DNA from: Lingula anatina
Lineage: Eukaryota; Animalia; Brachiopoda
Assembly (NCBI GenBank): GCA_051362555.1
Contig: CM120648.1
Coordinates: 7,808,587 to 7,872,586 of the forward strand
DNA: 64,000 nt
Reading direction: 5' to 3'
The position numbers and the translations under genes are program-made. The notes under the pieces are model-generated. The model saw only the letters and a program-made list of their open reading frames with translations, was not told where the DNA came from and did no database searches. Positions 31-59,728 of the stretch are shown here, piece by piece. Each line of letters begins with the position of its first letter. Position 1 is the first letter of the stretch.

Positions 31-1809
31 TACAACCACACACAACTGACCCTGTTACATGTATATATATTCCGTTATTCCAGGTCTCCAAGCTAATGTC
101 ACTGATTTACCTAATCACATCCCTTTAACATTGGCACGCTTGAGAGGCGGGAGAGACAATAACAGTAAGTGTTGTTTTAAATAAGTTTGACAATAAAGGG
201 TGTAAATTTTATACCAAAGGCTTCATACTGTAAGATGTAACATTATTCTTCTCTTTAATTCTGTACATTTGTTTCTCCTTAATGCAACATGTACATAGGG
301 TTGTCATTTTTAATAAATTCTAAAGGAGACGCTAAATATTTGGATTATTTCAAAGAATCAAAAGCTTGAGAAGTGCAAATGAACAGAAAATGGGAGGAGG
401 GCTTTGCCAGAAAAGACAAAAATATGTGAAAGGTGGTTAGCTTTAGAGACAAGCGCGTTGACCCGTTTTTTTATAAGGAAACAGTAAATCTAATGGTATG
501 TGCTCCTTTAGGAACAGCACTTGTTTTCAAGAGGGCTCATAAGCCATAAAAAAGGCTTGCAATACAAACTACTAAATCATGGACAGTATTTATGAGAAGA
601 TTCAAGTAAACTTCGTCTTCAATGCAATAAATTTGTAATGTAAAAATGATCCAAATCATTTACTAGCGAAAGAATATGATATAAGAAACGCCAACGGAAG
701 TATTGGCTATGCACCCTTATTAATAAGCTTCAGATGCAGTTACATGTAGAGTCAATTTCAAAGACATGCTATTGTCTTGTTATATATTTAAGTTTTATGT
801 TTTAGTTCTAACGTGGGATGACGGTAATGATAAAATCCTTCGTGGGGATGTCAAGTATAACAAATCCGAAAAGTGCCTAAGAGTGGAGCGAGAGGGGCAC
901 TTTCTCGTGTACAGCCAGCTCTGTGTGAGCGTTCCCAGTACTACTACTAGTTCAGCTGTGCATTTTACTCAAGCAATCCAGATAAGAATTCCATCCGGCT
1001 GGCACAGTGTGCTTTATAAGGAACTTAGTGTGCAGCGAGGCCATATTGATTGCATATATGTGTCAGGAATAGTGCACCTCGTCAAAGACGACTGCGTCAA
1101 AGTTGATTTTTCAGATGAAGAGTTAATCAGTAGCAACCAGGAGTACAATTCGTTTGGTTTGTACATGCTGGCATGAACCAGTCGTTCTCAATGCCTGTGA
1201 GGCCTTTATTTTTATTAGTAACGATGTTAATACAGTAAGTGACATTTCCGGGGACTTCACTGTGTTTCATTGTCAGTAAATGAGAAAATCAATGACTTCT
1301 TAAAACACATGCATTGTGCTTGTTCCCCAGTATGACAGTTAAAGAAAGACGACTATTTAATAAATGCCCATGTTTTTAGCTAATATTTTAATATTTAAAA
1401 ATTTTACGAATCCATATAGACCCAGAGATTCAAACAAAATTCATTATGCCCCCATGTAGAAATATGTCTCATATTGGTTAGGTATAGCATCTTATTGTAT
1501 ATAGTATACATGTTCTGTGTTTTACTGTCTTCCAATACAAATGTATTAGCATTCGCTAATATTGCGTGACCTCAGGCCACTGATTGGTCAGTAACCTTAG
1601 CTTGTTCAAGAATTGTTTTTCATAAAAACGGTATATTGCTACCATGCAGTACAAATTGCCTTGCTTTAAATTAATCGTCAGTACATTGAAAATATTTTAA
1701 TTGTTAAAATCCATTTTCTGTTTTATTTTTTATGTTTTTCCATTGATAAAAAGGAGATGTGCATTGCCAATGACATGTACTATGCTGTATCAATAAAACG
1801 TAGATTATT
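31..1809 (+). repeat. Segmental duplicate of 51229-53130 (ligand exons, intron and 3'UTR)
   Basis: Colinear high similarity by eye through the intron and 3'UTR. Similarity ends just after atcAATAAAacg(t/c)agattatt in both copies. Confidence 0.95.
84..1176 (+). CDS. TNF superfamily ligand, paralog A (last two exons only; 5' part lies left of the window)
   Basis: Exons 84-164 (cag|GT...AAC A|gtaagt; GLQANVTDLPNHIPLTLARLRGGRDNN) and 806-1176 (ttttag|TT CTA ACG TGG...TGA), both phase 1. TNF homology domain motifs: LARL strand A, LTW, LRVEREGHFLVYSQL, IYVSGIVHL, NSFGLYML. AATAAA near 1793. Confidence 0.92.
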
Positions 1810-1893
1810 TAGCAAGTCTGAGAGTTGTCTTTTCGTCGTATTTAGGTGGTCAATCGGTATAATGAAACAGATAAATAAAGCAAAGAATATATA

Positions 1894-1930
1894 CTACACT
1901 ACACTACACTACACTACACTACACTACACT
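1894..1930 (+). repeat. (ACACT)n microsatellite
   Basis: About 7 tandem actac units. Confidence 0.9.
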
Positions 1931-1998
1931 TTACTAGAAATAGAATAATCTTTGATGAAGGTAAAGATAATTTCATTTAAAATAAATACTACTATAAA

Positions 1999-2093
1999 GA
2001 TGTGGACGAGTGTCAAATTGAAAATGGCGGCTGACCCATTACTGCACCAATTCCTAGGGTTCCTATCCTTGCTCCTGTCGCCCCGGACTCTGA
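1999..2093 (+). pseudogene. Orphan calcium-binding EGF-domain pseudo-exon
   Basis: aag|AT GTG GAC GAG TGT... reads DVDECQIENGG(C, 1-nt deletion)THYCTNS*GSYPCSCRPGL*. This is the cbEGF consensus with a frameshift and stops. Confidence 0.8.
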
Positions 2094-4132: not shown

Positions 4133-4306
4133 GGCCGCGTTCGCAACGGCAGACTCACTAGTATACATGTATGCGTATAAAAGTTTGACGTTAAATCTCC
4201 CAATAAATACTGAACAGATTACCCCCAGGGACTTCGCAACAAGGATTCGAGGAGGTCGGCCAAATTTGATCCGCAGACTAGTTAGTCCGCTGTTGTGAAT
4301 GCAGCC
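4133..4306. mobile_element. Harbinger-like MITE (related copy 41565-41763)
   Basis: TIRs GGCCGCGTTCGCAAC / GTTGTGAATGCAGCC, flanked by TA. Internal ttgatccgcagacta is shared with the 41.6 kb copy. Confidence 0.55.
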
Positions 4307-5189
4307 TATGATGGTTTTAACGTCTAGTGTCACTATATCATCTATAAAAGAATGCTGAAAAATAACCATACTTCAAAGAAAAAAACAGTGCATTACATAT
4401 TTTCTTTAGATTTAACCCCATCCTGCTACAATCTCATTATTTTATGGCTCAGAACATTCTTCGAACAAAACCGTTCTTTATTTACATAAAGATGGAGAAA
4501 AATACCTTTCTTTGTTTGCATAAAGATAATTTTTTTGACTGTCCAGGCAAACATTAGGAATGCAATAGGTTTACACTTTTGCCAGTGGATTATTTCACTG
4601 AAATATTTGACTTTATATAATAATAACAGATAATACAGAATAAAAAGAAAAAAACTGACAAAATTTGAATCAAAATAAAATATGGTTCGGCATACTGCCC
4701 AGTGCCTGTAAATAAAACGTATCAATCAATGAGACTCATGTATAATACCAAAAAGCAATTGCTTTGTCTCATATACGAATTTTACACATGTATCTATGTT
4801 AAGACGTTTCTCGAATTGAATGATTATTCCCAATCTAAATAAATGGTCTACAGATATCATTTACAGAATATGCGATTATAGTGTAGAATATACATCGTGC
4901 GTTGTTTGTAGTATAGTAGTGTTTTGTGTGTTATACTGCTAATTCAAAAAAATATCCACTAGATAAATTATTTTCTAAAATAACAGGGATGTCATACAAT
5001 GTAAGTAGCCTTTTACTCAATAACACCATGTTCTAAAAATACAAATACAAAGATTCACTTAAAATCTGCAATATTATCAATTATAATCACAATCTTATCC
5101 AGTCATCTATAATTTTTCTCTGGTCCTGCAGGATCGTTACAAGGATAGTCCGTGGTAACTGCATGATTAAACATAGTGGTCGACTGGTT

Positions 5190-8100
5190 TTATGAATCAT
5201 TGCTGGCCCTTCCTGTGAAAACGGGTACATATTTACAAAGTACAGTATATGCTCACCAGTTTCTGCGTGCATTTTAATCTTGTTAAATTAGGAAAAAAAG
5301 GGACATCTGCAAAGCACTTTTCAACCAAAGAAAAATGTGACTACGTATTTGGCATTGCATCTGTATTTTGTTAATTTGTTTTGTTATGAACCATGATCCT
5401 TTGCGTTCAGAGGAAATCAAGTGACTTACCTTTTAATTGATCAACAAGGTCCTGATAACCTGCTTGTGATAAGCACGTATGAAACAACTGACGCGTAAGA
5501 GGGTCCCTTTTGTCCTTTATAACGTTCTGTAGTGCTTTAATTGCAGTGCTTCTGATTTTTTTCCGGAAAGGCACATGTCTTACTAACGGGAACTTATCAG
5601 GTTCTCGTTCCTCGATCTCCGTCAAATCTCTCAGTATATCGCCTTGAGGATTTAAAAATGAAAACACTGATAGAACATGTTAGCACTAGTACAAGACTGA
5701 TATTTACAGACTAATTCTGCTCAATGCTAGCATGGATACTACATGTTAATACATTTTTGTTTATGGGAACTAAATAGATTTTTCCAGTTAATGATATTAT
5801 TGCCTATTTTAAACATTCGTTTTCAATTCATAATTATAATGCAAATGTAACGTATTCAGTCCAAAGCACTTTCACATATACAGGGTTAATACTTAATATG
5901 GATTATTTTTATCATGGTTATTTTTGAGTGCTGATTAAATATTTTTTGGCTTGATTCATAAAAAAAGTATGTCACTAAGTGATAAAAACATCCAGTTTTC
6001 TGTTGTGAGATATTTTGGTCCCCAAACAGAGACGTTACCACCCCCCTGCTTCCACCCTAGGCAGTACACAATCATCGTTTTATGCCTCTCGTACACGTCG
6101 GCAGACACGGAATCGACCGTCCACCCCAAAAATTCCATATCTGACCTCATCACTGAAAACGAAGTGATTCCAGTGTTTTGGCTGCAAACGCACGTGGTCC
6201 CCAGCCCATTGCAAACGTCGCTGTATATGACCTGCTGTTAACAGTGGTTTCCGTACTGGTCTTCGTGAAAAATAACCGGTTTGCAGTAATCTCTTGTTCA
6301 CGAGGGACCTTGAAACGGGCTTTTCTGAGCTGGTTGTCTTTGTACGACCAGCACGGATCACTCTAAGGAGAAGGCGATCCTGTCTTCTTGGTGTGACACG
6401 CGGACACTATGGTGGAAGTGTTGGAGTAGGTGCCCCTGTTGTAGCATTTCTTTGGAGGACTTTACTAACGGTTCCTGAAAAATGTGGAATTGTCTGGCAA
6501 TGGCTGTCGGTTTCTGGTCATTTCCTCTGAGAGCAAGAATCCCACAGTAAGCTGCGTTGCTTAGCTGTCGAACCACATCTTCTCTAAGGTATCTGTCAAG
6601 TTTCAGAGCGATCCCTTTGTTGCTTCTCTAAATACACTCCAAAGATTGACCAAACCCATGCGTTTTTATACAAGGGCAGAAATTGCCAAAAAGACAACCC
6701 CTCACATTTCTGACCAAAGAACATGCAACTGCATGCATTAATTGTTTCGAGAGCTGTGTAGTAATTAGGTAACACACCTGGCTACACATGGAGTGACACC
6801 TCAGTTTTGGATTTAAAAAAAGTAAGAGAAAAATTAATTATTTTGTAGAAAATTTAATTGCCAAAAATAATAATCCATATTAAGTAGTAACCCTGTATAT
6901 ATTTCATCCGCACAGTAGGTCGCACTTAACAGATGTTTCAGCAATAACAAAATGTGCATTAGACAGATAGTTTGAACATACAATAAACATCAGTTTAAAA
7001 GATATGATATGAGAACGCCCCTATGAACATAAGGTGAATGTAAAAAACTAGTTTAGCCGGTCGCACTTCTCTTACCTTTTCCATCCGCTTGTACTAGTCT
7101 AAGATCAACTGAAACAAAACATCACATGGATACATACACAAAGCTTTGAATATGTGAAATAAGTTAGTGGTGCTGCATGGTTATTTTTTTCTGGATTTCT
7201 GTAAACCATCCCCAAACAAAACTGTAAGTCTCTTTTATATATTTTTAAACATATAAGTAAAACATCGTTTAACTAACACATTATTACCCGTACAGTATTA
7301 TCTACCATTACTATTTAGTTCTTTACTATAATGATGCCTTATACTGAAACATTATACATGTAGCAGCACTTATCAGGTGTTTCAGCAATGACAGAATGTG
7401 CAAGAAACAGTTCTTAAGTATAAAAACAACGTAATTAGAACGTCCCTATAAACAAAAAAAGGTAATTTTACTAGAACACTTATTCATTATATAAAGAATA
7501 ATAATTACCAACTAGAGAAATGGCAATGCATCAATTGTATTGTATCGTCATTAGTATATCATATTGTACAAGGTCATGACAATCTATGTACCAGTACAGA
7601 AATAAATTGAATATAAACAACAAGTGGACATTAGAACTAGTTCAGCCAGTCGCACTTCCCTCACCTCCCCCTGACACCTGTTGGTTTTTTCCATTCAGAT
7701 CTGAAACAAACAGTACTGACATTTATAAGGAAATATATAAAATATCTGAAAAGAACAAATCATGAATAACGAAGAATGGAAGTACTCATACGTAAATGTA
7801 GATGAATGCACCCCTTATCTAATTTAGACAATGACTAATGAAAAAGTAACATATATTTTGATGGACTGATAGAAAAGAAAATGTTGACATTTTATAAAGG
7901 TAAACGCATTTTTAAAAACCTCCGGGTAAGAAACCTCCTTTACCGAGGCGTGCAGTCCCAAACACTAGAGATTTGGACTTAAAGTGCAATCTAAAATCAG
8001 TATTGAACTGACGCGGTCTTAAAGATTAAGTAAGCAGTCTTTGTTTTCCCTAAAGACTAAAAAGGAACAAAAATTTCAGAGAGTAAAGCTATTAATCCTG

Positions 8101-11100
8101 ACATGTCTTATCTAAAAATAAATGTTTTTCATTGCTTTTGAAGCTATATTTCTAAGCTCTAATATCAAAACATTAACAGTATGCTTCACTTGCACATCTA
8201 AGTCTTTGCTTGTTTTAGGAGTTGTCTGAGATAGTTCTGGTCTTAAAGACGCACCAGTGAAAGTAGCATGGAGAAATTTAAGATGAATAAAAAAGTAAAA
8301 GAGGAAATCTCTCTCCCCCTCTCTCACTCTCTCTCTCTCTCTTTCAAAGACACTCGCGCATGATACGTTACTTACTGTCATTAAAGATTCTTGTATAAGT
8401 ATTGTTTAGCCATAGTTTTATATCTTCTTGCGTCAAAAATTTTTTCTCCATAAATGTGGTCACCAATTTCCAGTCAAAAGCAGACTGTGCCAACCATCTG
8501 ATGTCTTCCAACGGATCGTCTGAAACAATTTTAATCAGAATGTATTTGCAACTTACTTATTTAATATAGACACTGCATTGCACTATAAACTGAAAAGGTA
8601 TTTTATCCGTTCAAAGAAATATATGATCAAAATTAAGAGCTGGAAATAAAATGAATCTTATTTATAGAATGATGTATAGATATCTGAACTCTCTTTCTAC
8701 CGATACAATCTATACTCCCTTAACAAAATTTAGTGTGACTCCTATCATATTTATGTACATTGTTTCAAAGGTACCCTTACATTTAATATTACTATTGCAT
8801 AGCAACTAGGCAACCGATCATGGCTTATATTGGGGATGTGAACTTTAAAACATTAACCTACCTAGAATGACTATTGAAGAACACCAACATCAAGTATTTA
8901 CAGTATAATATGCGGCTCCTAAGCTAGTGGGATACATATTTCACCAAGCGGTTGACATGGAGGGGGGGGCACCGAATCCCCAGAAAGTCGGGTTGTTTCA
9001 TGCGACCCATACAGATGGTTAGACAACATTATAACCAAACAGGCACATAGGCGGGCTACCTGGGAAAGGCAGGCTACCTGGGAAAGGAATACCATAGGAA
9101 AACACACAGAGAGAAGAAATGGTGTCAATATGCTTCCTTAGGATCTTGACTGCAACACCAGGAACTGTCTACGTTGTATTGGGATTCTGGCAAGGACACC
9201 AGCTAACAACTGTGCAATGATACTGTTCTCAGATGAAAGCAGGTTAAACGTTGTGAGGAGTGATGGACGCGTAGGTGTCTGGAGAAGAGATGCTTTGAAG
9301 TAACTTCCAAATGTTTTGCCTCTGTTCAGCAGGATCAACCCCCATAAATCACGGTATGGGGTGTAGTGGCTACTGTGGTGTAGGCGAGCGGGATGTGATC
9401 AAGAAATCCCAAAGAAAGGCAATAAAACCAAGCACTGGAGAGGAACTTGCAGAATTTTGTATACAATGTTTTGGGGACCATGACCATTCATTTATGTCTC
9501 AGCTTGATAATGCTTGTCCACGTTCAGCTAATGCAACAGTAAGCTGGTTATATGCATGGGCATTATGAGAGAAATGTCCATGTTATATGCTAACCAGTTC
9601 CAGATCCCTAAATGACGAGCTCAATATCTAGATCAGAACCTCATTCAGGATGTGTAGAATTTCACAGAAAATGGGTTACTTAGGATATATCCTGCAAAAA
9701 AAATTCCCCACCCTACCTTGTGCCGTATAAAGAACGCCAACACTCCGCAAACGCTACAGACCTTTGACTCTATACACAGGCTTGTCAAGTTCATTCTCTA
9801 ATCTAGAGAGTACTGTGCAAAATCTTTAAAAGTATCTTTGGCTTTTTACTATGTTTACATTGTTCAATGATTGTACAATCAATTAAATTTTATAAAAAAA
9901 AAACTGAACAAAAACATTGGCTTAGAGCACGATTCTCTTTACTGTATTTAACACATTGCATTATATCTGAGACTTTTTTAGTTAGGGGAGTATACAGTGA
10001 AACAGACATAAACAACTTAAATTTCAGTACCAAAGAAACAGAATGGGCGAGCTACCAGTTTCACAACGACAACAGTGAAGTTTCTACACCCAACTGAATG
10101 CCTACTCATATGTTGAAAGGTCTTACATTGCATAAAAATATTTACTAGGATATGAAGACCAATAGCAGTGTTTTGAGCAATTTAATGAGAGTGGCCAACA
10201 TTGTGACATACTGCCATCGGATGCATAGGAAATGCTGTCCATTATACATTTCGCCTACATGTTAAAGCCCCCGTCACACTTATTCGGAATCAACAGGAAT
10301 CCATCGGGACCAGTTGGAATGACTCAATTAAAAATTTGTACTACGTTCGCGAAGAAATTTCTAATTGGCCTAAATTGTAATTGTAATTGTGAGGATGCCT
10401 TTGGAATACTCAGAATGCTCTTGAATCCGCTTGGAATGATTCGTGCACATTTCGGCTGTATTGGCTCTCAAATACAGCCCTATAGGTGGAAAACTAGGAA
10501 TATCTATAGTGCTGTCAGAATGCAGTCAGAATATTTAGAATTCACTTCGAATGCCGTACGAGTGTAGTTCGATTGCTGGCTGAAATAGGATTGAGATGCA
10601 TTCGAGTTGCGTTTTGGCTCATCTGTCTCTAGCAGGATTTGAAGTGTATTGCCATTTTGGTTCTCCCTCAAATGTGATCAGAATGTTTCGAATGCTGTCG
10701 GAATGCCGTGAGAATGTTTAGAATGCAGGCATAGTGCAATTAAAATACTATTCACATGCCATTCGATAATTTTCCACTTTGAATGCACTTCGAAAGACTT
10801 TAACATGAGCAAAACATTCGGGCCGGCCACAAGAATGGATAGAAATATTTGGAATGCACTTGGAATTCTTAGAATGCTCTTCGAATATCCAGGAACGCAC
10901 AAAGAACTGTCTTTTCAACGGCATTCTTGCTCATTCCGCCTCTAGTGTGGAGGAGGTACAGGTATAACAAATGAACTGTATTTGTTAAGAAAAAAAAACG
11001 AAGAGGCTAACTGTCATTCATCAAACTAACATTAAAAAGGCAGGCATTCAAATGTTTTTTAAGTTGGCTTGGGCAACTGGTAAGGGCATGGAACTTCACT

Positions 11101-14100
11101 GGAAAAGGTTTGTATTAACATAACTAAAATTATAAGAAAATAACTAGTATGTCTCTAGAAAATATGTTGTCTATTCCTTGCAGAATTTTTCGTAGCCGTC
11201 TTTTTAATAGATATGGTAAATACAAACCTTGTGCGTTTTCATGCCGGTCATTGCCTAAAAGAAAGAGTAAAATCGTGAACATTTTATTGAACATTTATTG
11301 AAGGGAAAACAAACCATCCAACAGTGTGCATAACGTGGAGCGGTGAAATATGAACAATATGGCCTTGCCTTCTCACTACCTCATATGCAATGATTTGCAC
11401 GTGGAAATACGTATTGTTGTTTAAATTAATAAACAAAATTAATATGCAAATTTCTGTACATTCCGACATCCAGTTTAGATTGTTGCAATTTCCCAATTCT
11501 GAAGCACAACACAAATTCTTTACATTTTCTATATTTAGAAGGCACATGAATGAATGATATAGATTTGTACAACAACGCAATATGCCGGTAATACATCCTT
11601 AATCTGTGGAACCTTAATCTGTGGTTTATTATACCATCGAATGCTGGATGTGGTGTCGATAGAGTAACTTACTTAGTAATCTGCTAGCTAAGTCACCATA
11701 CGCGGAATTGGTCAAACAATCTAAAAGGGTCGTACGGTTAGGTTTGTCAGATTTGCTCCTTAAAATTTCCTTTAATACATCAATAGCAGTACGTCTAATG
11801 ATATACAGCTCATCCGGTTTCGCAATGCAGTCCATAGTTTTTCCCAATGGAAACCGTCCAGGTATTCCCTTGCTTGCTTCCAGATCATTGATCAACTCTG
11901 AATATATTTTGAAATACAAACATAAATAGGACATGTTGACATTTTTTTCAGCTATGTGGAAATGTGAATTTTGATATAGCAACTTATATAATCAACACGA
12001 CGTATTTACATATTTAAAGTTCACTATTAAGTTATTAGTGAAGACTAATGGTACTTATTCAGTTGAACGTACTGAACCCACCTTCTGTTTGGGCGTCTGC
12101 TTCCAGTAAATTCCGCTGATCTGAAATTAAAGAGAATGTAACATTTAGTAGTTTAAAGTACTTATCTTTTATCAGCCGTGTCTAGAACACAATTTATTAT
12201 TTTATAAAATGTTTTATAGAGGTTAAACACATAATTAAGTCGGGTGACCAAGGTTCGTTAGTATCGTGTGAAAGCTCATTTAGTCAGGAGTCAGATTAGG
12301 CCACACTTTTTTAGTTTTATGGATGACATCCTGCGCGCCCACCGATTTTCGTCCGTTCTCCGAAAAAAAACACCCCCAATGAAGTCGGTTGTCGCAAACG
12401 TCGTTATTGAATTTGCCGGTAAATAACCTTTTTGCTCATGCGTATTATCGCCACGTGGGAATATGGCCGCTTTGCCGTCAAATTCATCTCTAGGATTACT
12501 TTCAAATTACACGACAATTAAAGTTCTAAAGAGAACGGGGCCGTGGTTTTGGATTGATATGCCATTGAAATTGGGCATGGAGATATCACCTCTTTACAAC
12601 CATACGAAAGGCTGACGGCGGCCAGTGATTATCGCCCGGGAAATTTCAGTGACATTCTGTCCAAAGCAGCACATACCAGGCTTTTTTTCTTGTAGTTAAA
12701 AAAAGGGTCGACAGGGGCGTCGAGGTATTTGGTGGTCTGAAAGTTGGACAGGCCACCCGACAGTTTGGCTGCTTCGCGTGAATCGAAGTAGACAAAATGG
12801 CATCGGCCAAATTGAACTTTAATAGATTTGGTAGTATTAAGCATAGGCCCCCTATATATATATATATCTTTGCATAATTTTTTTACATTTCTGTGAAGTG
12901 TTCATAAGGCTTTAATATGCTGAGAGTACAAATTAGGACACACTGTTTGTTTGATATGTGTTTTATTGGTTGCTATGCCAACAAAATGCATGAAATAACC
13001 TTAAATAGATTTGGTAATATGCAGCATATCTAATCGTGGTTTTTTTACCTTTCTACGAAGCATTCACATTTCTTTAATATTTTGAGAGCATGGATTAAGA
13101 CATATTGTTAGTTTGACACGTGTTACTGTGGTCATTATGTGTTTCCAGCTGTGTACTGACAGTATACTAGTATACCTTTACTAAAGCAGTATTTTTGGAC
13201 TGTTTTTTATTCGCCCTCTCGCACCAATTTCGGGGTCCCCATAGGATGTCATCCATAAAAATAAAAAAGTGTGGCCTTATGTTTGTAGAAGTTTCAAACC
13301 AGTAGCTTTCACTATCATGTAAATGGTCATTATATAACACCAAGCAGCTTTACAAATGGGTTTTAAAATGGGGGTAGGAAAAAACATCCGCATTATGATA
13401 ATTAAATAAGATAAATCAATGAATAACATTTCAGTATCTAGCTGAATGATTGCTTGCTTTATATTCAGTAATACAATTATGCACCAATCAATCGCATATA
13501 ATCAAATATGGACAGATGTCATCTGAGGTCAAATTTGAGGCATTTGTAGGGCCAATACACCAATAGAGATTATTTTTAAAAAGAAAATGTAAATCAATAA
13601 TTATATACATAAATAGGACATGCTGACATTTTTTAGCTACTTGAAAATGTGAATTTTGATATAGCAACTTGTATAATCAACACGAAGTACATACATATTT
13701 AAAGTTCACTATTAAGTCATAAGTGAAGACAAATAGTACTAATTCTGTTGAACTTTATGCACCCACCTTCTGCTTGGCGGTTTGCTTCCGGTAAATCCAG
13801 TTGAACTGAAATAAAAGAGAATGTTACATTTAGTATTTTAAAGTACTTAACTTTTATCAGTTGTGTCTAGAACATAATGAAATGTTTTTTTCACAGATTG
13901 AACACATAATTAAGTTGGATGACCAAGGTTCATTGACATCATGTGAAAGCTAATTTACATGTAGTTACAAGCCTGAATATGTATGTACTACTTGCAAACC
14001 AGTAGCTTTCACTATGTAAAGGGTCATTATATAACACCAAGTGGCTTTAAATGCATTTTAAAAATAGGGGTAGGAAAAAACATCCGCATTGTGAGAATTA

Positions 14101-40183: not shown

Positions 40184-42217
40184 GTCCCTTGCTCGCTTAA
40201 CCTCCACATGGGTGCATGAGTATACACTGTGTATGGAATATGCGGAAAAACGTTTTTTTTTCTCAAAATGGAAAGTTTCGCAAAGGTAGCGCAGTCTATC
40301 AGGTATGTTATAATGATAGATTTAAACTGATATCTGCATATCAGGTGACCAAGGTGACCGATTACTCATAAATAATAATTTCTCCAGGTCTTGAATCTTT
40401 CACAGGCAGATTTCATTGACCATACTGATAGTCATAGCACACATGATATTGCTTGTGTAAAACATCATATAGCAAAGATATTTGAGGTAACATGGACTTA
40501 TTTATCCCATGTGGAAGTAAAATTATTAAGCGACCGGGCCTCAGAGGCCCGGTTTCCAGGAAATGGGACTAACTTTTGGAAAAGTTAATTTCTACATATG
40601 TTGTAAATTATTTCAAAACTAATTATTTATCCATTGATGGGGTATAAGTTGCTTGAGGATTACATGAAAGGAACAGGCTCAAAACCTCATGCGAACGAAG
40701 AGAGAGCAAGAGATACATGGGTCCGGGCCTGCGAGGCCCCTGAAAGGTGATTGAGGGTTAAGATATTTTACGTAAACGGAAAAATCACTACAAATTGATA
40801 TACATATATATTTTTTATTTCCGATTAATATGATATAACACAACTGTATGTCTGGAGTACACAGCTTTGGATTTTGGCTCGTGCCCATTTCTATTAAATA
40901 TGTGTTTGTCCTTAGACGCATCCCATTACATTTTACGTTTTACTGGGTGTTTTTCGGTAAAATACGAGTGTGTGAAATAATACACAGCCACCCTCTCGCG
41001 ATATACTCACAAGTGCGTGTTGAACACTTTTCGATGACGTTCGAGCTGTTCAGGTACTGGTATACATATCGTTCGGGTGACAGTTAATTATTTTATACTT
41101 GGTGCCTTGATGATCATTGGGAATATTTATAGTTAGAGAGACATGATATGCAGTTTGGAGGACCTCCGTTCCTGGGGGACATACATTCCTTTCATACCGG
41201 CTAAGCTGACAGTAATCTAGTGAGACTCCCCACAGGGATAGATCGATCTAAAATCTATGGGAATGGGGTCTAATTTAGGGGGTGACATTTCTATTGTTCA
41301 GTGTGTGTGTACATACACATCATGAGTTTCAATGAAGTGCTACTCAATTTACATCATAGACTATCAGGCATCAGAGGGTCGCTGAGGATTTAAATTATAA
41401 CAAAGGTGAGCATGCGTATTAACAGTAAACTGTAGTATTAATTAATATTTCAGTTTAGAATGGAGAAAAGTAAAAAAATAAGATCGAACTGCTACACATT
41501 GACTTTTAATAAATTTTTGAGAAACAAAGAAGCAGTAAATAACATGCAAAAAAACTCACACAAAGGCCGCATCCACAACATAAGTTGATCCGCAGACTAA
41601 CAGATCCGCGGATCAAATGCACCGACCCACTTTTAAAAGCTTACCGCGTAATCCCCGCAGAAAATCTACCCAGTGTCTTTTGAGGGAATCAGACGACAAG
41701 CTCTCAAGTATTCCGGCAATATCTGATCTAAAGATCTGTTTGTCTGCAGATCAACATGTGGCCATATACACACTTACCGATAAGAGGACAGTCCAATAAG
41801 CGGCCATCTTTGAGAAAAAGGATTTAGAAGCCGGAAGAAGTCCACTCTAGTACTTTAATGTCTCAAAACAAATCTGAAAAAGACGCGCGAGACCTCAGTC
41901 TTAGCTGTTTTCAGTCAAAGCAAGCTGTCGATAATGCTTGAGGATAAGTATTCTTTTACGTTCACTTTGTAAGCTGACAATATAGTTCAATTATTATTGA
42001 AATATTCAAAGTGTGCACATGTACCAAGAGGAACAAAACCCCAGCTGCACCAAGAATTAACCCTACTTATGCACCAAGAATTAACCCTACGACAGCATCA
42101 GAAAGTTTATCTCTCTATAAATTCCATGCTATAACCTACAGGTAAGTGAGTTTAACAAAACCCCGTTCATTTTAAGATGCCCCGAGAAACGTTCATCTTA
42201 GTACCTGTGAGCATATT

Positions 42218-42441
42218 CAGATCAATGGATCAAATATGGCGGACCCTACATGAAAGAAGAGTCGACTTATCCGCTGACGGTCTTCCTGCCTCCACAGGCG
42301 CCATTAAACTGATTAAATCACGGTTCCGAGGTTAAATTGCTAGCCCCCTGCAAGGACGGCGCGTGTGAATGTGGGTAGACCATCAGCAGATTAGTCGGCT
42401 CTTCTTCATGTAGGGTCCGCCATATTTGATCTGTGGATCAG
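42218..42441. mobile_element. Hairpin MITE with TIRs of about 60 bp
   Basis: gatcaaatatggcggaccctacatgaa...ttcatgtagggtccgccatatttgatc. Confidence 0.75.
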
Positions 42442-42773
42442 AAGATCTCTTTGACCTGTTTGACCTTGAAATGTGGAATTGAGAAACCTAGCTGCATTCA
42501 ACATAAAATCCGTAATCGGTCAATTGTACTATCAAAGGTTTTTAGTTTTATTTTCATTCACCTTAATGTTGTCTGCATGGAGACTCTTTTATGTATGGAT
42601 CAATACACTGTATAATTTTTTACCCGAGGTCTCTCGTGCATAAGCTGCAGTTAGTTTATATCTAATCTACAAGAGTTGGTGTAAACCCTGTTTGTTTTGT
42701 AATGAGAAGTACATGGCCGACACATTTGTGAGGACACTGCAAACACGCTGTTGGAATTTGTGTCACAACGTTA

Positions 42774-43748
42774 GGCCACACTTTTTTATTTTTATGGATG
42801 ACATCCTCTGAGTACCCCAAAATCGGTGCGAGAGGGCGAAAAAAAAAAAAAACAGTCCAAAAAAAAAAAAAAACTGCTTAAGTAAAGGAATGCTGTCAGT
42901 ACACAGCTGGAAACACAAATTTAACCACAGAAACACGTATCAAACTAACAATATGTCTTTATCCATGCTCTCAAAATATTAAAGCAATGTGAATACGTCG
43001 TAGAAATGTAAAAAAAGTCATGAATTGATATACTTCATATTACCAAATCTATTTCAGGTTATTTCATGCATTCATTTGGTATAGCAATCAATAAAACAAA
43101 TATCAATCAAACAGTGTGTCTTTATTTGTATTCTCAGAATATTAAAACATTTTGAACACTTCACAGAAATGTTTAAAAAATGATGCAAAGATATGCTTAA
43201 TACTACCAAATCTATTAAAGGTCATTTCAGACGATGCCATTTTGTCAACTTCAACTCACACGAAGCAGCTAAACTGTCAGGTGGCCTGTCCGACCTTCAG
43301 CCCACCAAATACCTCGACGCCCTTGTTGACCCTTTTTTCGCTACAGAAAACCTGGTATTAATGTGCTGCTTTATACAGAATGTCACAGAAATGTTTCGGC
43401 CGCCGCCAGCCTTTCGCACAATTGTAAAAAGGTGATATCTCCATGCCCAATATCAATGGCATACCAATCCAAAACGATGGCGCCCGTTCTCTTTATGACT
43501 TTTATTGTTGTGTAATTTGAAAGTAATCCTAGAGATGAATTTGACGGCAAAGAGGACGCATTTCCACGTGGCGATAATACGCACGCGCAGAAATCTCATT
43601 TCCTGACATTCAATAACGACGTTTGAGACAACCGACTTCGTTGGGGGCTGGGGGGGGGGGGCTTTTTTTTTTTTTTTTTTTTTTTGGAGAACGGGCGAAA
43701 ATCCGTGCGCGCGCAGGATGTCATCCATAAAATTAAAAAAGTGTGGCC
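42774..43748. mobile_element. Zator/Harbinger-type non-autonomous element, copy 2
   Basis: TTA|GGCCACAC...GTGTGGCC|TTA; inverted relative to 12299-13276. Confidence 0.88.
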
Positions 43749-43813
43749 TTATATGATATATAATTTCGGGGACATGCATTGAGTCACACCCCATTAACGC
43801 ATGGGAGAATTAT

Positions 43814-44545
43814 CCCAGCGGGCAAAATATGTTGTTTTTACATTGAAACAACGTTGAACCATAACGTTGATAAGACGTTGGATAAACATTGAATTTGAAA
43901 GTTGACTCAACCTCAGATAACAACTTTGTATCAACGTCAGATAACAACATTGTATCAACCCCAGTTGTTAGCTAGACAACATTCTTGCATGAAAAGACAT
44001 TGAAATGACCTTAGGGTAGGGTATAAAAGTATGGCCTTAAAGTTAAAATTTCCAAGGTTTAGATTAATATATACCTCAACCTGTCTATGTATAACAGGTT
44101 ACCAAGAACTGTTACCTTTATTAATTCACTCCATCACATTTACAGCAACTAATTCATCCTAGTGTTAGCTGACCTTGTAAGGAATTCGGTTTATTGAAAT
44201 GTATTTCTGAATAATAAGTTAAGAAAATTCATAAGTTCACTAAAGACACAAAACAACTGTCACTTTTACTTTTAACACTTTTTTGATTATTTTGATAAAG
44301 TTAGTTACAGTATTGATAAACAAAGTATCACGTTTTCAACAATTAATATTTTAAAATATAATCCATGTCTGCAAGGTTGTGTCAATGACCAAAATACAAC
44401 GTTGAGTCAACGTCACATTATGACGATGTTTCGACGTGGCTGGATCAACGTTGATTTTATGTTGAATTTACAGTAGGTAGATCAACGGCAATTCAATGTA
44501 TCAACCTGTTTTCAACGTTGATCCAACGCAACTATGCCTGCTGGG
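43814..44545. mobile_element. CCCAG-terminus EnSpm-like non-autonomous element
   Basis: TIR CCCAGCGGGCA / TGCCTGCTGGG with repeated caacgttg subterminal motifs. Confidence 0.7.
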
Positions 44546-44636
44546 AACTTAGGACTTTCTAACTACCCCGATCGTTTCCTATGTTAGAATTGCACACCCA
44601 GTGCTTTTCACACCACGTACATGTACATGTACTTAC

Positions 44637-44990
44637 AGTCTGTAGGGCGACTTTTCAAATGTATGATGGAAATGTCGAGACGCTTCCCAATTCATGTAGA
44701 CCCCTAGACTTGTCCGTCACTTCCTCTTAATATCGCTTAGTTACCTAAGGTGAATCAATAACCCAACCTGAGCTTCAGAGATAACTTGACACTAACCTCT
44801 TCACAATAGCCTATCTTCATCGTGTCAAGTTATCTCTGACGAAAATAGTTTGACCTAGTTTATATAAGCCAATCGAATCCATGTTTCAAAATTTTCACCA
44901 AAGTTTGGTCATTTTGAGTCACTGAGGGCGGGCTTTAAATTTGATTGGCGGGCGGTGCGGGCAATCGAATGTATAAGTTTTCATTGAACA
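44637..44990. promoter_or_regulatory. Candidate promoter / first exon of the receptor (possibly bidirectional)
   Basis: Minus-strand gtaagt donor at 44636-44631, ETS-like GAGGAAGTG (minus, about 44717-44726), CCAAT (about 44869) and ATTGG (44944), GC boxes at 44925-44960. Confidence 0.35.
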
Positions 44991-44995
44991 GGTGA

Positions 44996-47900
44996 CAGCC
45001 CGGGAGCCACCGGCTCATATGACGGTTATTTTGGAGAATATTAGATTGGGCCTCGTTTTCAAAACTTGAAGCGGCGGCCATATCCAATTTGGCGGGAGGA
45101 GCAGGCATAAGAGACAGGTAAGATGAACAGACGTTTACACGCTGATATGTTGATAATTTTACTAATGCACTTGACAGAACGATAAAGTATGTTCTCAAGC
45201 TATATTTTTTATACCAAAGTAGTGTTCAAGTATCGGTTTCACTGAATCTTTTATCAAGTTACGTCGTGTTCCAAAATGGCGGCACACAGAACCGAAATGT
45301 AAACACGTTCTTTTGAATTGTGCCAAATGCAGATGAAGGTGATTTTTCTTTGTCTGTTCGGTTTTTTTTATAGTGTGACATTTGTTTTTGAATATGTTAA
45401 AATTTTAGGAAGGAACCTAACCTGCAACTTATCGATTTTCTACATGTACGACAGGCAGTATATTTTGCAATGTTCCAAGTAACTACAGCAGCAGTCTCGT
45501 GTTACATCTTGAATGAATGTCGAAGTTTAATAATGAATTCTTTTCTTTTTATGCATTTCTTGTTGTTTTGAAGTTAACTAGATTAAATTTACTTCATGAA
45601 ATGACAGTGTGTGTGGTTATGGTGCTCACAGTAAAGTGACTATGGGGAATGTATTGCCTCGTGTCTTGTATGAATGTCACAGTAAGATATTGAGAATTTG
45701 CCTTCTTCTGATATTTTTTTGTGTTTTGGTGTTTATTAGATGAAATGGCTTGTGAAATGACATGCATTATACTTGATTCTGCATAGATAGATATATAATG
45801 AGAGGGAGATAGATCACTTTTGAGGATATGAAAGTCATTGTTTAGATATTCTGCAAATCCCTTTTCATGCTATTTCTTTGCATTTTGATTTAAGTAAGAT
45901 GAAAAAAATACAGAAAATGTAATATTATCCATGAAAAGGAGTTAAACTTATACAGGAATGTCCAATAAATAATAGGTTTATCTACCTTTTTTTACTTTCC
46001 ATGACCTTGATCATTGACAGTACAAAGGCTTATATTAAGCTATCATAATAAGGTATCAGTATTACACAGCTGAAGATATATATATATATATATACTGCCA
46101 AATATAGTGAAGCTTTTCATAAGTCTGTTGGAATATATCTTGAACATATTTTTTATTTTATCATAAATTGAATAATATATCATGCCCAACAAAAAGCTTA
46201 GAGAGGATATTCACTATGGGAAAGTCAATTTAAGGTACTGGCATGTCAGTGAAGAGCATTGTTATCAGCCCCGCATGTGTGTGCATGGGGTGAGTGTAGG
46301 GGTACACATGCTTGTAAATTACCCAATGAAACTATTTTCACACTTGTAACTTTTATATTTGTGAAAGATACAAAACTGAAAAACAATCACAAGCATCTTT
46401 TCAAATCTATGAATAACAAATTTTAACTTTTCACATGTTTACTTCTTTGTCAGGAGACAAATGTATGATATCAACATGAGTGAAATTTTTTTTCTCTAAA
46501 ATGAGTTTTATTTCTTACATATTGCAACCTTCATTGGTTGACCATTTTCAATAGATAAGCACTTTGCATAATAAAATGCCAGTATTACATTGTGTGTTTT
46601 CAAAATGCAAATTTTTGTTATAAGGAAAAGTTTATTTTTGTTAAAAATCTCCCCTGCACAAACCTGCAAAAACATGGGTTATAAGTTTGTGAAGGAAAAT
46701 TGTTTCATGAAAAAAGAACATTATATTTGCAAAATTCCCCCTTTGTTTTAATTTATAAATTTGTGTATTTTATGAAACAAAATGTACCAGTACAATAATT
46801 AGTGTATGGTAGTTGTGAACACTCTAGTTTGTATTTCCTAAACTCTTCAAGGCTTCATCTAAATGGGATCTTAATTGATTTAAAGATACGCATGTTTGCC
46901 ACAGTTCAGCTCCTGATGATGAGCTTTGTTTATCTATACTGATACACTTTAAGAGTAAAAAGTGCTATTTAAGATAATTCAATTGTTACCAGCTTCCCTA
47001 ATAAATTACCAAAATTGTGATTTATTACTTATATTGATTTTAGTGTGTATTGTTGTTGTTGTTTTGTGTGTGTGTAAAAAGATATATGCAATTACAAAAG
47101 TTTTCCTGTAAAACTTTTTAATATTTAATCATATATTTTTCTAGGCTTGAAGAACATGAATGGGACCAGGACAAATTCTTTTTCCAATTCCTTGGCCTGC
47201 AGTTTTTATGACAGAATCACCTATCATTTCCAAGTACTGTGTGGCAGTGAGCACCATCACAACCTCTGACATTCTTTTAAAGACTGAAAAATATATTTTT
47301 GTGCTGTGGTAGCTGTTGCTAATAATAATATTTATTGATCATCAGTATTACTACATTTGTCATATATTTTACCAGTATATGTGAACCATGCACCATAGGT
47401 AAGGTATGCTAAGTTTAGCTTTTGCATACATGACATGCCTTGTAGACAGAAATTTACACTTATAAAAATAAATTCAAATGCAAGTATGGATTGGTACAGG
47501 ACTTACTGGGTATCGGTGAAAAAAACTGCTGACCCAAGGTAAATTTATAAAATAATATTATTATTAATATTGATCCTGTTTTTAAAAGGAGTGGTGTGTT
47601 TGTTGGTTAACTGTATGTACTGATTAATAAGTGTAAAATAATCGCCATATTGATGTGTTGCTAAAATAAAAAAAAAATTTTGCCACAAATAAACGTGTAT
47701 TACATGTATGAAAATAAAATATAGCAAATTGAATTGATGTATCTTTTGTTTTGTTTTTTCGTTTTTTCATAAAAAAAGAACTCTTATTGGTTGGCCTCAT
47801 ATAATAAATAAATGCTTATTTATAAAGAAAAAATATGAAATGTTTATTTTCCTCCATTCTTCCTGTGCCAGCTTCATTAGACTACATAGACAATTATGAG

Positions 47901-48424
47901 CGGCAGAAAAACCAAAACGAGGTCAGAATGCCAACAGAATGTACTGAGTCAAAACGAGGCTGGTACACGGTTGTTGCAAGGAAGACATTTTTTGCATACA
48001 CGGGTGTGAATTGATTTGTGCCATTCCTGGATGAAGGTAAAGTTCCTTACATGCTTACATTTACAGAAAGCTGAATAAATTTGTCACAGCTTACTGGTAA
48101 TTTGAAATTGGAACCTGTTCTCTAAGAATGCAAGCATTAGAGTCAAAGTTGAACTTCCGCTGTAGCTTAAGTAAAATATTTGGTTTCAAACTCGTTTTTC
48201 TCCACAAAATAGGGTTTAAATCAACTCGAGGAGCATCTGACATGATTTGCAATTTACTTTTAAAAATGATAATATACATAACAAAACTTTTATATCCTTA
48301 AAGGCCGAGATATTCCACCGTTTCTGACACCCTACATATCTCAAAAAATTTCACCCAATTCAAATTTTTGAACTTCCGGTTTGGTTAAAAGCCACCTAGC
48401 GGCAGACCGGTGGCTCCCAGGCTG
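44996..48424. mobile_element. 3.4-kb non-autonomous DNA transposon, 18-bp TIR, 3-bp TSD (superfamily uncertain)
   Basis: TGA|CAGCCCGGGAGCCACCGG...CCGGTGGCTCCCAGGCTG|TGA (17/18 match). No recognisable ORF inside. Confidence 0.8.
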
Positions 48425-48709
48425 TGACTGCATGGGGTCAATCTTTAGACTCTGATAAACTGCGCTGCTTACATTTGCACTGCTGATGACCTAGTTTGAA
48501 TACTCAAAAGAAAGTGACCTGGTAAAACCCAAGCGTATCGCATCGAAGAGAAATAAAAAAACAGGTGCATTTAAAAGATGAAGACACGGCGCGGCTTATG
48601 CTCGCTAACAAAAAGAGCTCTTCTCACAAAATTCTAAATGCGTATATCTGCAAAAGGACTGTGACTAGAAAGCAGCATTTGACGATAACGAAGCCCTTAA
48701 ACATTCCCG

Positions 48710-51700
48710 ATGATGAATGTTCGTGGTTATGATCACCGACTTCGACCTCAGCACCTGCGTGTGTACGATGAGCCACCGCTGTTACCTTCTTCGCAATCCT
48801 CGGACCAGTCGAGTACGACTGACGGCTTGTACGCGTCCATCCGACCATCCAACATCACAACTGTAGACCTTGAGTCATTTTCCGATCCCAGTGAAAATGG
48901 CAGTGGTCACGACGACAAAATGAAGCTTGGACGACGATGGCGTTGTTACCTCATGGTGATCTTCGCCATGTGTTGTTTACAGATGATAGCCATAGTGGTT
49001 CTGGGTGCTGCTATTCATTTTCATCAACATGATGACGGCAAACCATCCAGGGACACGGCGGCTCTTTTGAGCCAACCAATAGCTATGTCCCAAAGCGATG
49101 TTTTAGAGGATGGGCATGTTGGACCAGCTTCCTTGTGTGTTCCAGGCCTGGATATCAAATACCACAGTGAAAACTGCACCGTACTTAAAATATTGCATCG
49201 GGTAATTGCGACAGTTTATATTTCTTCGGTAGACTCTAGTGTGTTTAACTGGTAAATAATCAATTAAAATCACATTTTAGATGCATGGAACATTAAGAGC
49301 TTGAAAACTACCGGTACATGCTGCAATTATAAGACGTATACATTTATTTAGCGACTCAGTTGCACTTGCAGTTTCCCTGTTATACTGTGTCAAAAACGTT
49401 TTAATTTCATTTTGGGAGTTAATTTAAATTACATTGCCTATAGTTACGTTAGTCTCAATAAAGTCTACCACTACCCAGGAGACCGTTGAGCCTTTACAGT
49501 ATGTATTAACTTACTGCTGTTTATAATTCCAAAGATACCAGTATACAGCTGCTCTAATAATGCCAGAAGCATTCCTTGTTGATAATGTTGATAATATTAC
49601 GCTAACTGATTTTTACGCAGCATTTTTGTTATTATCATTACAATTAAATGGTGATAAACCTGAATTATGCCATCTTTGGTTAAAAAGAAAGAGGAAGTAG
49701 AGTAACACATATCGGTGCGATGGTGACGCATTGCTTTTATATGGTAAATATGGTGGGGTATAGTTTGGTGAAACAGCACGGCGATGACTTTTTATCTATT
49801 TATTTGCAGCTCCTGGAAAAAGTTGACAAAAATCTTCATGCAGCTATGAACGACATGAATAAAACCGCCAATAATGTGATGAATGGTGCGTGCAATGCTT
49901 CCTCTACCATAGAGGGCTTACAGTGTTGGGAAAATAACCTAAACCATGGTCTTAGAATTTGACACCTGAACCACTCTTCTATTCATATTATCACATCGGA
50001 TTCGTTACTTTTTCAACACTTAAAGGTCATTTTTATAAGTTACTTATCTAAAACCATGCTCAGGGGACCCATGACGTATGGATTGTCAAACACAGATGAA
50101 ATGCCAGAATACTCCTCCCCTCCTCCAAAAAAAAAAAAAAAAAAAAGGAAGACAGAAAGAGATAAACGCCCAGCAGAAGAAGAAGAATGCTTCTTTGGTG
50201 TTATAGTCCCTTTAATCTTTGTCCATAGGAAAATAAGTTTACTTTCGTCCAGAAATATGTCCGCGTGAAATATACATGTATATTCAATTGTTTACGCATG
50301 GCATCTTGTCTACTCTTTAACGCGTTTTTCCGTTTTTCTTTATATATTTTTCCTTTATATATATATATATATAAAGCCGTTTAGTAAATAACAACCTTTG
50401 CATATATACTTGTGTACGATAAGTTATTTTAATCGTTGTCAATATCCCTCCTTACAGGTGTCAATAGAAATATGTCGAAGCTGGCTATAAACAGTCGTCT
50501 GCAGGACAGCGCTCTGTACAATATCACGGAGACAGTTGCTACTTTGAATCAGATAATGAATGGTAAATATGTTTGAACGTCTAAACAGGCAATCTAGTTT
50601 TTTCATATTCCCCTAAACCTTTTTCCTTCTTATTTCTATTTCTCTGTAGGTATGATGTCCCTGGACACAATTGATGCCAGTTTTGGCCCTTGGTTTCATA
50701 GACAGAACGAAAATGGTGCTTTGTCTTTATACTATAACTTTTGCTTTCTGTAGAAAATGTCAATATTGAGATAAGTTCCCTTTTTAACTTTCACAACAGA
50801 TTATATTAAATCGGTCCTGAGTGATAACTGTTAAGGTCAACCCCGTGGTTATCTTAAAATGATACCTATATGCTTGTGGAGGTACTGCAAACACTTTCTT
50901 CAAATATGAGTCACCATGATGGAATATATAATCTTAAACGATATTATGCCTGAAAATAATTTATGTAAATATCTGTTTGTAAGTTGTTTAAACAGTTTGC
51001 GGTACATTATTTTTAATACAAATAGAAAGATTAAAGGCAATGTGAAAAATGTACCCGTACGGTACCAGAATAAATCATAAATATGATAATCTGTCATATT
51101 TACGGAGCAGAACTAAAACCTTTATTTTTATAGTATTAATAAAAACCCTTTTCTGATTTGGGGCAATTAAGGGCTTTTTTCCACTCGTTTTGCTTCTTTT
51201 GGGTGAAAAAAATTACAATACAAGCCGATACAACCACATACAACTGGCCCTGTTACATGTATATATATTCCGTTATTCCAGGTCTCCAAGCTAATGTCAT
51301 TGATTTAACGTATCTGTCAAGAAAGGCTGACAACCCTTTAACATTGGCACGCTTGAGAGGCAGGAAAGACAATAACGGTAAGTGTTGTTTTAAATAAGTT
51401 TGACGATAAAGGGTGTAATGTTATACTAAAGGGTTCGTAAGATGTAACATTATTCTCTTCTTTAATTCTGTACATTTGCTTCTCCTTTTAAAATGCCAAC
51501 ATGTACATAGGGTTGTCATTTTAACAAATTCTAAAGGAGACGCTAAATATTTGATTTATTTCAAAGAATCAAAAGCGTGAGAAGTGTTAATGAACAGAAA
51601 ATGGGAGGAGGGCTTTGCCAGAAAAGACAAAAATATGTGAAAGGTGGTTAGCTTTAAAGACAAGCGCGTTGACCCGTTTTTTATAAGGAAGCAGTACATC

Positions 51701-52525
51701 TAATGATATGTGCTGCTTTAGGAACAGCATTTGTTTTCAAGAGGGCTCATATGCCATAAAAAAAGGCTTGCAATACAAACTACTAAATCATGAACAGTAT
51801 TTATGAGAAGAGTCAACTAAACTGCGTCTTCAATAAAATAAAATTTAAAAAAGAGGCGGATCAGAAAAACTGAAAAATAAAAACTTTTTTCTCATCATAC
51901 ACGCTGCATAATTGATATTTTATCTTCAACTAGTTTGTTTCACTGATAACCTTCTATTGTACTTAGATACACGAATGAAACGTGTAAAATACCAACATAA
52001 CTTCTGTGATGTAAAAATGATCCAAATCATTTACTAGCGAAAGAATATGATATAAGAAACGCCAACGGAAGTGAAGTATTGGCTATGCATATGCAGTTAC
52101 ATGTAGAGTCAATTTCAAAGACATTTTATTGTCTTGTTATATATTAGTTTTATATTTTAGTTCTAACGTGGAATGACGGTCGGGATTTAATCCTCCAGGG
52201 AGACGTCCAGTATGAAAACACCGAAAAGTGCCTAAGAGTGAAGCGAGAGGGGCACTTTCTCGTGTACAGCCAGCTGTGTCTATTCGTCCCCAGTACTAAT
52301 TCAGCTGTGCATTTTACTCAATCAATCCAGAGAAGAATTTCAACCGGCTGGCACCGCGTGCTTTATAAGAAACTGAGTGTGCAACGAGGCCATACTGATT
52401 GCACCTATGTGTCAGGAATAGTGCACCTCTACGAAAAAGACTGCGTCAAAGTTGATTTTTCAGATGAAGAGTTTATCATTAACAACCCTCAGTACAATTC
52501 GTTTGGTTTGTACATGCTGGCATGA
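48710..52525 (+). CDS. TNF superfamily ligand, paralog B: type II membrane protein, 377 aa, 5 exons
   Basis: Exons 48710-49201, 49810-49885, 50458-50562, 51282-51377, 52161-52525 (1134 nt, phases 0,1,1,1, all GT-AG). Cytoplasmic tail, TM YLMVIFAMCCLQMIAIVVLGAAI after RRWR, helical stalk, C-terminal TNF homology domain (LRVKREGHFLVYSQL..YVSGIVHL..NSFGLYML). Confidence 0.93.
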
Positions 52526-59600: not shown

Positions 59601-59728
59601 TAAGACTAGTGTTCACCGCCGGTCATAACGCTTTGGATAAAGCGCTGCAAGTGCGTGTAGCTAAACTGCGAGAGAGGTACAGAAATATGGATCCTTCAGG
59701 ACATGTTGATCGTTCTGTTATTGATTAA
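56642..59728 (+). CDS. RING-HC + B-box fused to an immunity-related (IRG/IIGP-like) GTPase; one in-frame TAG at 57104-57106 (null allele, pseudogene or sequence error)
   Basis: Exons 56642-57200, 57584-58642, 59250-59728 (phase 1,1; 2097 nt). RING CPRC..CRHTFCLSC..CPLC..NPYVQRIL; B-box CEMC..CRTCTLFLC*DCRESH..H; IRG motifs GATGTGKSALVNALRG, LWDIPGYG, FIVRSKID, FLVSSYEISRYD, KKRERLERRI. Confidence 0.85.

Follow-up and report, generated by a model that had tools for sequence, protein, structure and literature searches.

Genes for two partners that lie tightly linked, and whose surfaces diverge fast, are known from Brassica SRK/SCR and Ciona s-/v-Themis, which form multi-allelic self-incompatibility haplotypes with suppressed recombination. 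In humans, the NKp80-AICL and NKp65-KACL genes lie 7 kb and 3 kb apart in tail-to-tail orientation, the reason for their linkage being unknown (PMC3819593; here and below, statements drawn from cited papers refer to the accessible parts of those papers). Invertebrates have large TNF and TNF receptor (TNFR) families, in which hardly any ligand has been matched with a receptor. Here we describe a locus from the brachiopod Lingula anatina in which a TNFR-like gene lies between two TNF ligand genes, A and B, within a window (the whole stretch of DNA that was analysed) of 64,000 nucleotides. The reading that we tentatively favour, and which may well be correct, is that the receptor and the divergently oriented TNF ligand are a co-inherited immune signalling pair, probably duplicated as a unit of about 51 kb.

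Two TNF ligands and the gene between them

Judged by its sequence, the window is Lingula (brachiopod) DNA, as the ABC transporter gene found at its right end has four exons that match Lingula anatina XP_013413427.1 (97, 87, 100 and 100%). The gene models concur with the order given in a preliminary description of the stretch: ligand A on the plus strand is tail-to-tail with the receptor-like gene on the minus strand, which is head-to-head with ligand B on the plus strand. The stop codons of the receptor and ligand A converge at a distance of 3,927 bases, the start codons of the receptor and ligand B diverge at a distance of 6,903 bases, and the receptor and ligand genes are adjacent. Only two of the 99 stop-to-stop frames of at least 68 aa between the ligands match Pfam, both as transposases, which agrees with the earlier observation that no other recognisable host gene lies between them; this test is blind to genes built of short exons, the receptor gene itself included.

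Ligand B consists of five plus-strand exons (48710-49201, 49810-49885, 50458-50562, 51282-51377 and 52161-52525) with an open frame of 377 aa. It has type II topology, with a lone hydrophobic segment near residues 77-106 (windows starting at 77-88) and a C-terminal TNF domain, and its last exon matches Pfam TNF with an E-value of 1.9e-10. The last two exons of ligand A lie within the window and its 5' exons outside: the penultimate exon (84..164, plus strand), encoding the end of the stalk and the first TNF-domain strand, is in frame, bounded by AG/GT and 90% identical to ligand B exon 4, and the last coding exon (806..1176, plus strand), with its frame and acceptor, encodes most of the TNF domain (Pfam TNF, E=1.1e-9). 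The two ligands score 38.7 and 41.2 bits against PF00229, above the cut-off of 23, and the best solved-structure match of ligand B is CD40L (CD40 ligand; E=0.0015). None of 21 candidates passed in a homologue search with the last exon of ligand B, which is weak evidence, and none of 270 pattern matches was confirmed in a metagenome scan with the ligand alignment.

Four RNA runs (X1, X4, X7 and X9), chosen by species label, were mapped to the locus; X7 and X9 belong to one study. Joints for all four introns of the ligand B model occur among the reads of X7 and X9 (8+5, 4+8, 2+5 and 2+6 reads), and none among those of X1 or X4. The X7/X9 ligand reads are mostly less than 95% alike to B, and among the 40 of 282 letter rows listed, the 15 sites with a counterpart in A carry the A letter at 8 and that of neither copy at 7; two reads of run X1 match ligand B at two listed sites. 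The cleanest X7/X9 reads show 1-5 other differences over the greater part of coding exon 1, 6-13 in the exons of the stalk and TNF domain, and 5-12 in the 5' UTR. The joints in X7 and X9 thus confirm the exon plan of an A/B-type gene, not the expression of ligand B itself. A third ligand type is apparent under the same species label in these two runs (window 48000-53400), which may reflect further paralogues or, under that one label, diverged populations or cryptic species.

The divergent intergenic region (41808..48709) spans 6.9 kb and holds repeat elements at 42213-42446, 42767-43756 and 44084-44318. The term head-to-head, used for this pair in the preliminary description, is appropriate for the divergent orientation and not for a compact bidirectional promoter, given the 6,903 bases and the transposon pieces between the starts. 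By eye, ETS-like and YY1-like motifs are found near the receptor start (41800-41830), and a CTCF-like motif lies about 300 bases upstream of ligand B (48370-48410), inside a short repeat.

The receptor-like gene

The receptor model joins 18 minus-strand exons, from 41807 to 5103, into 483 aa with no internal stop and with AG/GT at every internal exon boundary; its splicing is predicted. Nineteen exons had been counted before, a number that is possible since strong candidates at 27788, 17914 and 16619 remain unplaced. Between 5000 and 30000, a scan of splice signals, scored with generic weights, picked out 14 candidate open phase 1-1 exons on the minus strand and none on the plus strand; nine of the 14 are model exons, two are alternative acceptors of model exons and three are unplaced. 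The model exons at 11897 and 8519 have weak acceptor scores and were placed by homology to their sister exons. We consider the gene to be real because of the internal homology of its tail and the strand bias, 14 to 0, of strong exon candidates. Two segments were ruled out as receptor exons: 23330-23262, where reads show a 44-nt skip typical of a repeat, and 26545-26445, which has a weak acceptor and the wrong phase and adjoins a transposase.

The predicted protein has type I topology, that is a hydrophobic start, an ectodomain and one membrane segment. Exon 1 (41778..41807) is predicted, from its frame and GTAAGT donor, to carry the start codon and the first 10 residues, likely those of a signal peptide, which was judged by eye. 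Exons 2-5 (35483-35420, 35007-34913, 31949-31823 and 31554-31485) encode a cysteine-rich ectodomain of about 105 aa with 15 cysteines, and exons 6 and 7 (29927-29863 and 29610-29563) the transmembrane segment, with hydropathy above 1.6 in windows starting at residues 134-148 and a maximum of 2.8. Two predicted juxtamembrane micro-exons (29040-29005 and 28673-28641) keep the frame and have splice scores of 16.4 and 17.1.

The spacing of the 15 ectodomain cysteines is one that we take to be TNFR-like, and the starts of the C-x-G-x-aromatic type (residues 29-30 and 95), a D-N-x-C-x-C junction and a C-x-P-x-x-x-x-N-C run follow what is presumably the TNFR module order. The receptor exons were searched one by one, which weakens every library test. 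Residues 21-40 of exon 4 match TNFRSF21 weakly (E=1 and 1.8), ranking below chance matches to disulfide isomerases; Pfam gave no relevant family for seven single receptor exons, sequence searches of solved structures with exons 3 and 5 gave nothing relevant, and a PROSITE-like pattern finds no match in the receptor model. The earlier designation as TNFR-like or death-receptor-like is based on residue patterns and not on a significant library match, the best having E=1. By pattern and topology, the middle gene very probably belongs to the TNFR family.

The cytoplasmic tail, of about 315 aa, is built of phase 1-1 exons only and comprises two tandem modules of about 145 aa, in each of which two micro-exons stand between an X and a Y exon; aligned with each other, the two modules score 130, where 1000 shuffles reach 59 at most. 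In module 1, the model places exon X1 at 16848..16979, with RNA reads in its bin. It is followed by the 39-nt micro-exons l1 (13767..13805; splice scores 10.0/10.1) and l2 (12082..12120), a recent duplicate of l1 (11912-12282 against 13599-13957, 83% identical), and by Y1 (11673..11897), which scores 80 against Y2 with a shuffle maximum of 63. Module 2 has X2 (8376..8519), likely death-fold helices 1-3, which is 30% identical to exon X1 (score 55, shuffle maximum 48) and has reads in its bin, the micro-exons l3 (7665..7700; 36 nt, in frame, scores 6.2/11.0) and l4 (7076..7108; 33 nt, in frame, scores 6.3/10.7), and Y2 (5430..5642), likely death-fold helices 4-6, an open phase 1-1 exon that is 34% identical to Y1 and has reads of runs X7 and X9 in its bin. 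The modelled last coding exon (5103..5125) adds seven codons and the stop; all these exons are on the minus strand.

Around l1 and l2 there is a recent duplication of about 700 bases (11912-14304, minus strand) with the doubled 39-nt micro-exon (copies 83-87% identical), interrupted later by a repeat element of 1 kb. In module 2 the two micro-exons likewise have a common downstream intron start, and, together with the l1/l2 duplication, this implies that the insert between the halves seems to grow by micro-exon doubling.

A canonical single death domain, as the name death-receptor-like would imply, is not what the gene encodes: the tail consists of two duplicated modules, and their family is unnamed. 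Judged by its motifs, X would correspond to helices 1-3 of a death fold and Y to helices 4-6, the two being separated by an insert of about 55 residues; a few motifs appear CARD-like. The halves of the modules were folded and compared apart. Folded alone, Y1 has helices at 27-46, 51-63 and 67-73 (pLDDT 75-82 there); a fold search with this model gave a best Z of 4.3 (rmsd 3.1, 51 aligned) and a viral CARD at rank 39 (Z 2.9, rmsd 2.6, 43 aligned), neither above background. On these motifs and separately folded halves, it seems reasonably likely that each tail module is a split death fold. Sequence searches of solved structures with the X and Y alignments returned nothing relevant, none of 67 candidates passed in a homologue search with a receptor tail exon (weak evidence), and ESM Atlas returned nothing relevant for Y2 (best 0.86, a lead only). 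The sole HMMER match of the tail exon among 1.84 billion representatives, a bacterial HEAT-repeat protein, was set aside as a chance match of helical repeats. No TRAF-binding motif was found in the receptor by pattern matching. A duplicated tail split by micro-exons would be a receptor architecture that no library searched has a name for.

RNA mapping to the receptor covered the tail exons (10-18) at 82% likeness and was dominated by repeats, with 15 of 34 joints and 40 of 2152 letter rows listed. The depth per exon base in runs X1, X4, X7 and X9 is 0.23, 0.15, 2.24 and 3.10 for the receptor (five low-repeat tail-exon bins) and 0.43, 0.18, 5.54 and 9.45 for the ligand; normalised to letters read, the depth of both genes in X7 and X9 exceeds that in X1 and X4 10- to 35-fold. 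A segment without a model exon, 14372-15038, has a receptor-like pattern of depth (0.01, 0, 0.6 and 1.02 in the same runs) and contains weak exon candidates at 14810 and 14537, possibly a 19th exon. A spliced antisense signal lies in a receptor intron (19700-22400, plus strand), with a GT..AG joint from 20263 to 20712 in all four runs; the element is repeated, has a degenerate cysteine/histidine-rich frame and is probably derived from a transposon. The receptor introns also hold a Tc1-type transposase remnant (5940-6900), a helix-turn-helix remnant of a DDE transposase (25612-26040) and, by eye, a LINE-like remnant (33283-33932).

Ligand duplication and the surrounding region

The two ligands lie in direct repeats, 51,183-51,355 bases apart, with homology from the window edge to about 20 bases past AATAAA. 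By self-blastn, the part of copy A in the window (31..1812, plus strand), which ends about 20 bases after AATAAA, matches 51229..53134 (plus strand) of copy B, 31-634 aligning with 51229-51845 at 89% and 627-1812 with 51997-53134 at 86%. Right of ligand B there is no receptor remnant, and the flanks right of A and B are unrelated. A plain tandem duplication with a 51-kb offset carries everything between the homologous points, and therefore the unit would be the receptor with its divergent ligand, with a second receptor left of A. We propose that such a unit of about 51 kb was probably duplicated, which predicts a receptor paralogue beyond the left edge of the window. The direct-repeat geometry thus agrees with the tandem, diversifying receptor-ligand unit proposed earlier, and diversification is seen for the ligand copies in their TNF domain.

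Between A and B, 34 of 665 aligned intron positions are changed, as are 41 of 602 positions of the 3' UTR and 47 of 365 of the last exon (5% in introns against 13% in the last exon). The non-coding identity is 93-96%, the amino-acid difference is 24%, and there are several large intron indels. Over 147 codons pN is 0.133 and pS 0.128, giving a dN/dS of 1.04, or 0.83 for the last exon alone; non-synonymous and synonymous sites both exceed intron sites (P=1.2e-5 and P=0.009) and do not differ from each other (P=1.0). Amino-acid changes affect 19 of 56 loop residues and 9 of 64 strand residues, a bias towards loops (P=0.016) for which we delimited the strands by an alignment with CD40L and by the family topology. 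The divergence peaks in the first 60 columns of the last exon, with 15 differences against a mean of 4.6 (P=0.003 after 28 windows), a segment that is presumably the loop region contacting receptors in solved TNF complexes. That exons are more diverged than introns suggests old variants kept apart while conversion evened out the introns, a pattern known from the MHC.

To the right of ligand B, a three-exon gene on the plus strand (56642-59728) joins a RING finger and B-box to an interferon-inducible GTPase of the IIGP/IRG type (Pfam 2.4e-6 and 2.5e-17); with an in-frame TAG at about 57104, in the B-box of its first exon, this copy may be a null allele or hold a sequence error. The 3' exons of the ABCG transporter (61427-63446, minus strand), orthologue of XP_013413427.1, offer a usable synteny anchor for the locus in other assemblies.

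Readings of the locus and known systems

If the receptor and its divergent ligand are a pair, the following mechanism can be envisaged. TNF ligands trimerise through the TNF domain, and the membrane-anchored ligand would be expected to do the same; the trimer would cluster three receptors through their cysteine-rich ectodomains, and clustering would join the tandem cytoplasmic modules, likely death folds split by the insert of about 55 residues. Among the death-fold adaptors that the joined modules could then recruit are FADD and CRADD, which have been reported from a brachiopod (PMC11463336). With the genes linked, matched versions would stay together even as the ligand surface drifts or is pushed to diverge. 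When three chains of the ligand B last exon were modelled in complex with exon 4 of the receptor alone, the scores were 0.13 and 0.18 against a mark of 0.34, which speaks neither for nor against binding.

Several observations weigh against this pairing. Between the two starts lie 6.9 kb with repeats and without a kB-type site, of which the whole window has two against 2.6 expected. A dN/dS of about 1, not above 1, fits relaxed constraint with intron conversion as well as it fits selection. The X7/X9 ligand reads come from another allele, population or paralogue, receptor joints are absent among the 15 of 34 joint rows listed, and the runs split by study and library, so that the parallel depth of receptor and ligand sets one study against two and rests in effect on two groups. 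Exon X2 folded alone gives two helices, where three are expected of a death-fold half. The ectodomain has no CXXCXXC or CXXCXXXC, a TNFR signature that is common, not universal (10.1101/2024.07.27.603686), and has CXCXXC twice (Cys 67, 69, 72 and 90, 92, 95); this mismatch argues particularly against the Grindelwald type with a single cysteine-rich domain (CRD). Finally, the data come from one locus in one assembly, picked from about 250,000 windows screened.

The strongest alternative, which we regard as plausible if somewhat doubtful, is that the genes are chance neighbours in a fast-changing immune region, a ligand-only copy having been placed, either by duplicative transposition or by tandem duplication and later rearrangement, across an unrelated TNFR-like gene with its true ligand at some other locus. 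Invertebrates commonly have tandem TNF duplicates (PMC12843592, PMC7674686), the region is rich in transposons with an immune-type RING/IRG gene downstream, and a ligand-only copy would likewise account for a homology that stops at the poly(A) signal of the ligand itself. Such a copy needs an extra event, however, as a plain tandem duplication with a 51-kb offset includes the intervening sequence, and the exon depth of receptor and ligand rises in the same two runs. Under random gene order, some ligand would have a receptor neighbour with P 0.006-0.077 per genome (assuming 10-25 ligands and 10-40 receptors), and the RING/B-box/IRG gene nearby makes random gene order too lenient a null. With the family sizes assumed, the clustering of immune genes and the many windows screened, chance therefore remains a serious rival.

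It is rather unlikely, in our judgement, that the pair reading extends to its most far-reaching form, in which tandem, co-duplicating TNF cassettes diversify in both sets of contact loops as lock-and-key haplotypes and signal through a new insert-split, perhaps CARD-like, death fold; such cassettes would amount to a TNF-based allorecognition system, or an alarm proof against pathogen evasion, in a lophotrochozoan. We consider it quite unlikely that the middle gene is a cysteine-rich type I receptor outside the TNFR family, with a lineage-specific repeated tail and hence no ligand-receptor pair. The best database support of E=1 (TNFRSF21), below chance disulfide isomerases, the inexact CRD signature and the unmatched PROSITE-like pattern would be expected of such a gene, whereas the presumed TNFR module order is followed, size and topology fit, and searching the exons singly weakened the library tests. 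That A and B are alleles of one ligand gene assembled in tandem would agree with the non-coding identity of 93-96% and with a single letter class in X7/X9 at almost every one of the 40 rows listed (of 282), and is very unlikely, as the flanks right of the copies are unrelated and the 24% amino-acid difference and large intron indels are high for alleles, though possible under balancing selection.

If the favoured reading of a co-inherited pair holds, a receptor fixed beside its ligand would be a natural cognate pair to test, and the duplicated pair would show ligand and receptor specificity splitting, a co-evolution for which family sizes have so far been the sole basis. Should the neighbours prove unrelated, the locus remains a fast-diverging pair of TNF paralogues with an unannotated receptor.

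The Lingula locus resembles SRK/SCR and Themis in linkage and in the divergence of the ligand side, known here from the comparison of the ligand copies. Its predicted receptor shares with the death receptors (TNFR1, Fas, DR6 and p75NTR) a signal peptide, a cysteine-rich ectodomain, one membrane segment and a helical tail; they have one compact death domain, whereas the Lingula gene has two tandem modules of about 145 aa, each of four phase 1-1 exons. A p75-like Lingula receptor has been noted (10.1101/2021.12.26.474206), and unusual tails have precedent in amphioxus, e.g. TNFR-caspase (PMC2575513).

Expansions of TNFSF and TNFRSF in oyster, amphioxus, coral and tunicates are alike in their type II ligands with a C-terminal TNF domain, their recent lineage-specific duplicates and their multi-CRD receptors, some with death domains (PMC7674686, PMC12843592, 10.1101/2024.07.27.603686). 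Ligand-ligand tandems and co-evolution at the family level are described there, not receptor-ligand adjacency (PMC7674686, PMC12843592), and the accessible text of 10.1101/2024.07.27.603686 makes no mention of a receptor gene between or beside its ligand; that of PMC8195603 has no bearing on receptor-ligand pairing. In agreement with the preliminary description, whose author was not aware of a precedent, our literature searches, with incomplete coverage of subscription papers and preprint supplements, found no report of adjacent TNF and TNFR genes.

Linked receptor-ligand pairs are already known as a kind, the TNF-TNFR version being the one not found in the literature searched. The preliminary description drew its analogues from SRK/SCR and Themis and overlooked a closer one among animal immune genes, the linked NKRP1-CLEC2 pairs of the mammalian NK gene complex (PMC3819593), in which the genes of an immune receptor and its membrane-bound ligand likewise lie a few kb apart. 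There, both sides are C-type lectin-like, binding is proven and several pairs are mapped, whereas in Lingula the genes are TNF and TNFR-like, one receptor is seen, we infer the pairing, and the receptor has both a head-to-head and a tail-to-tail ligand neighbour.

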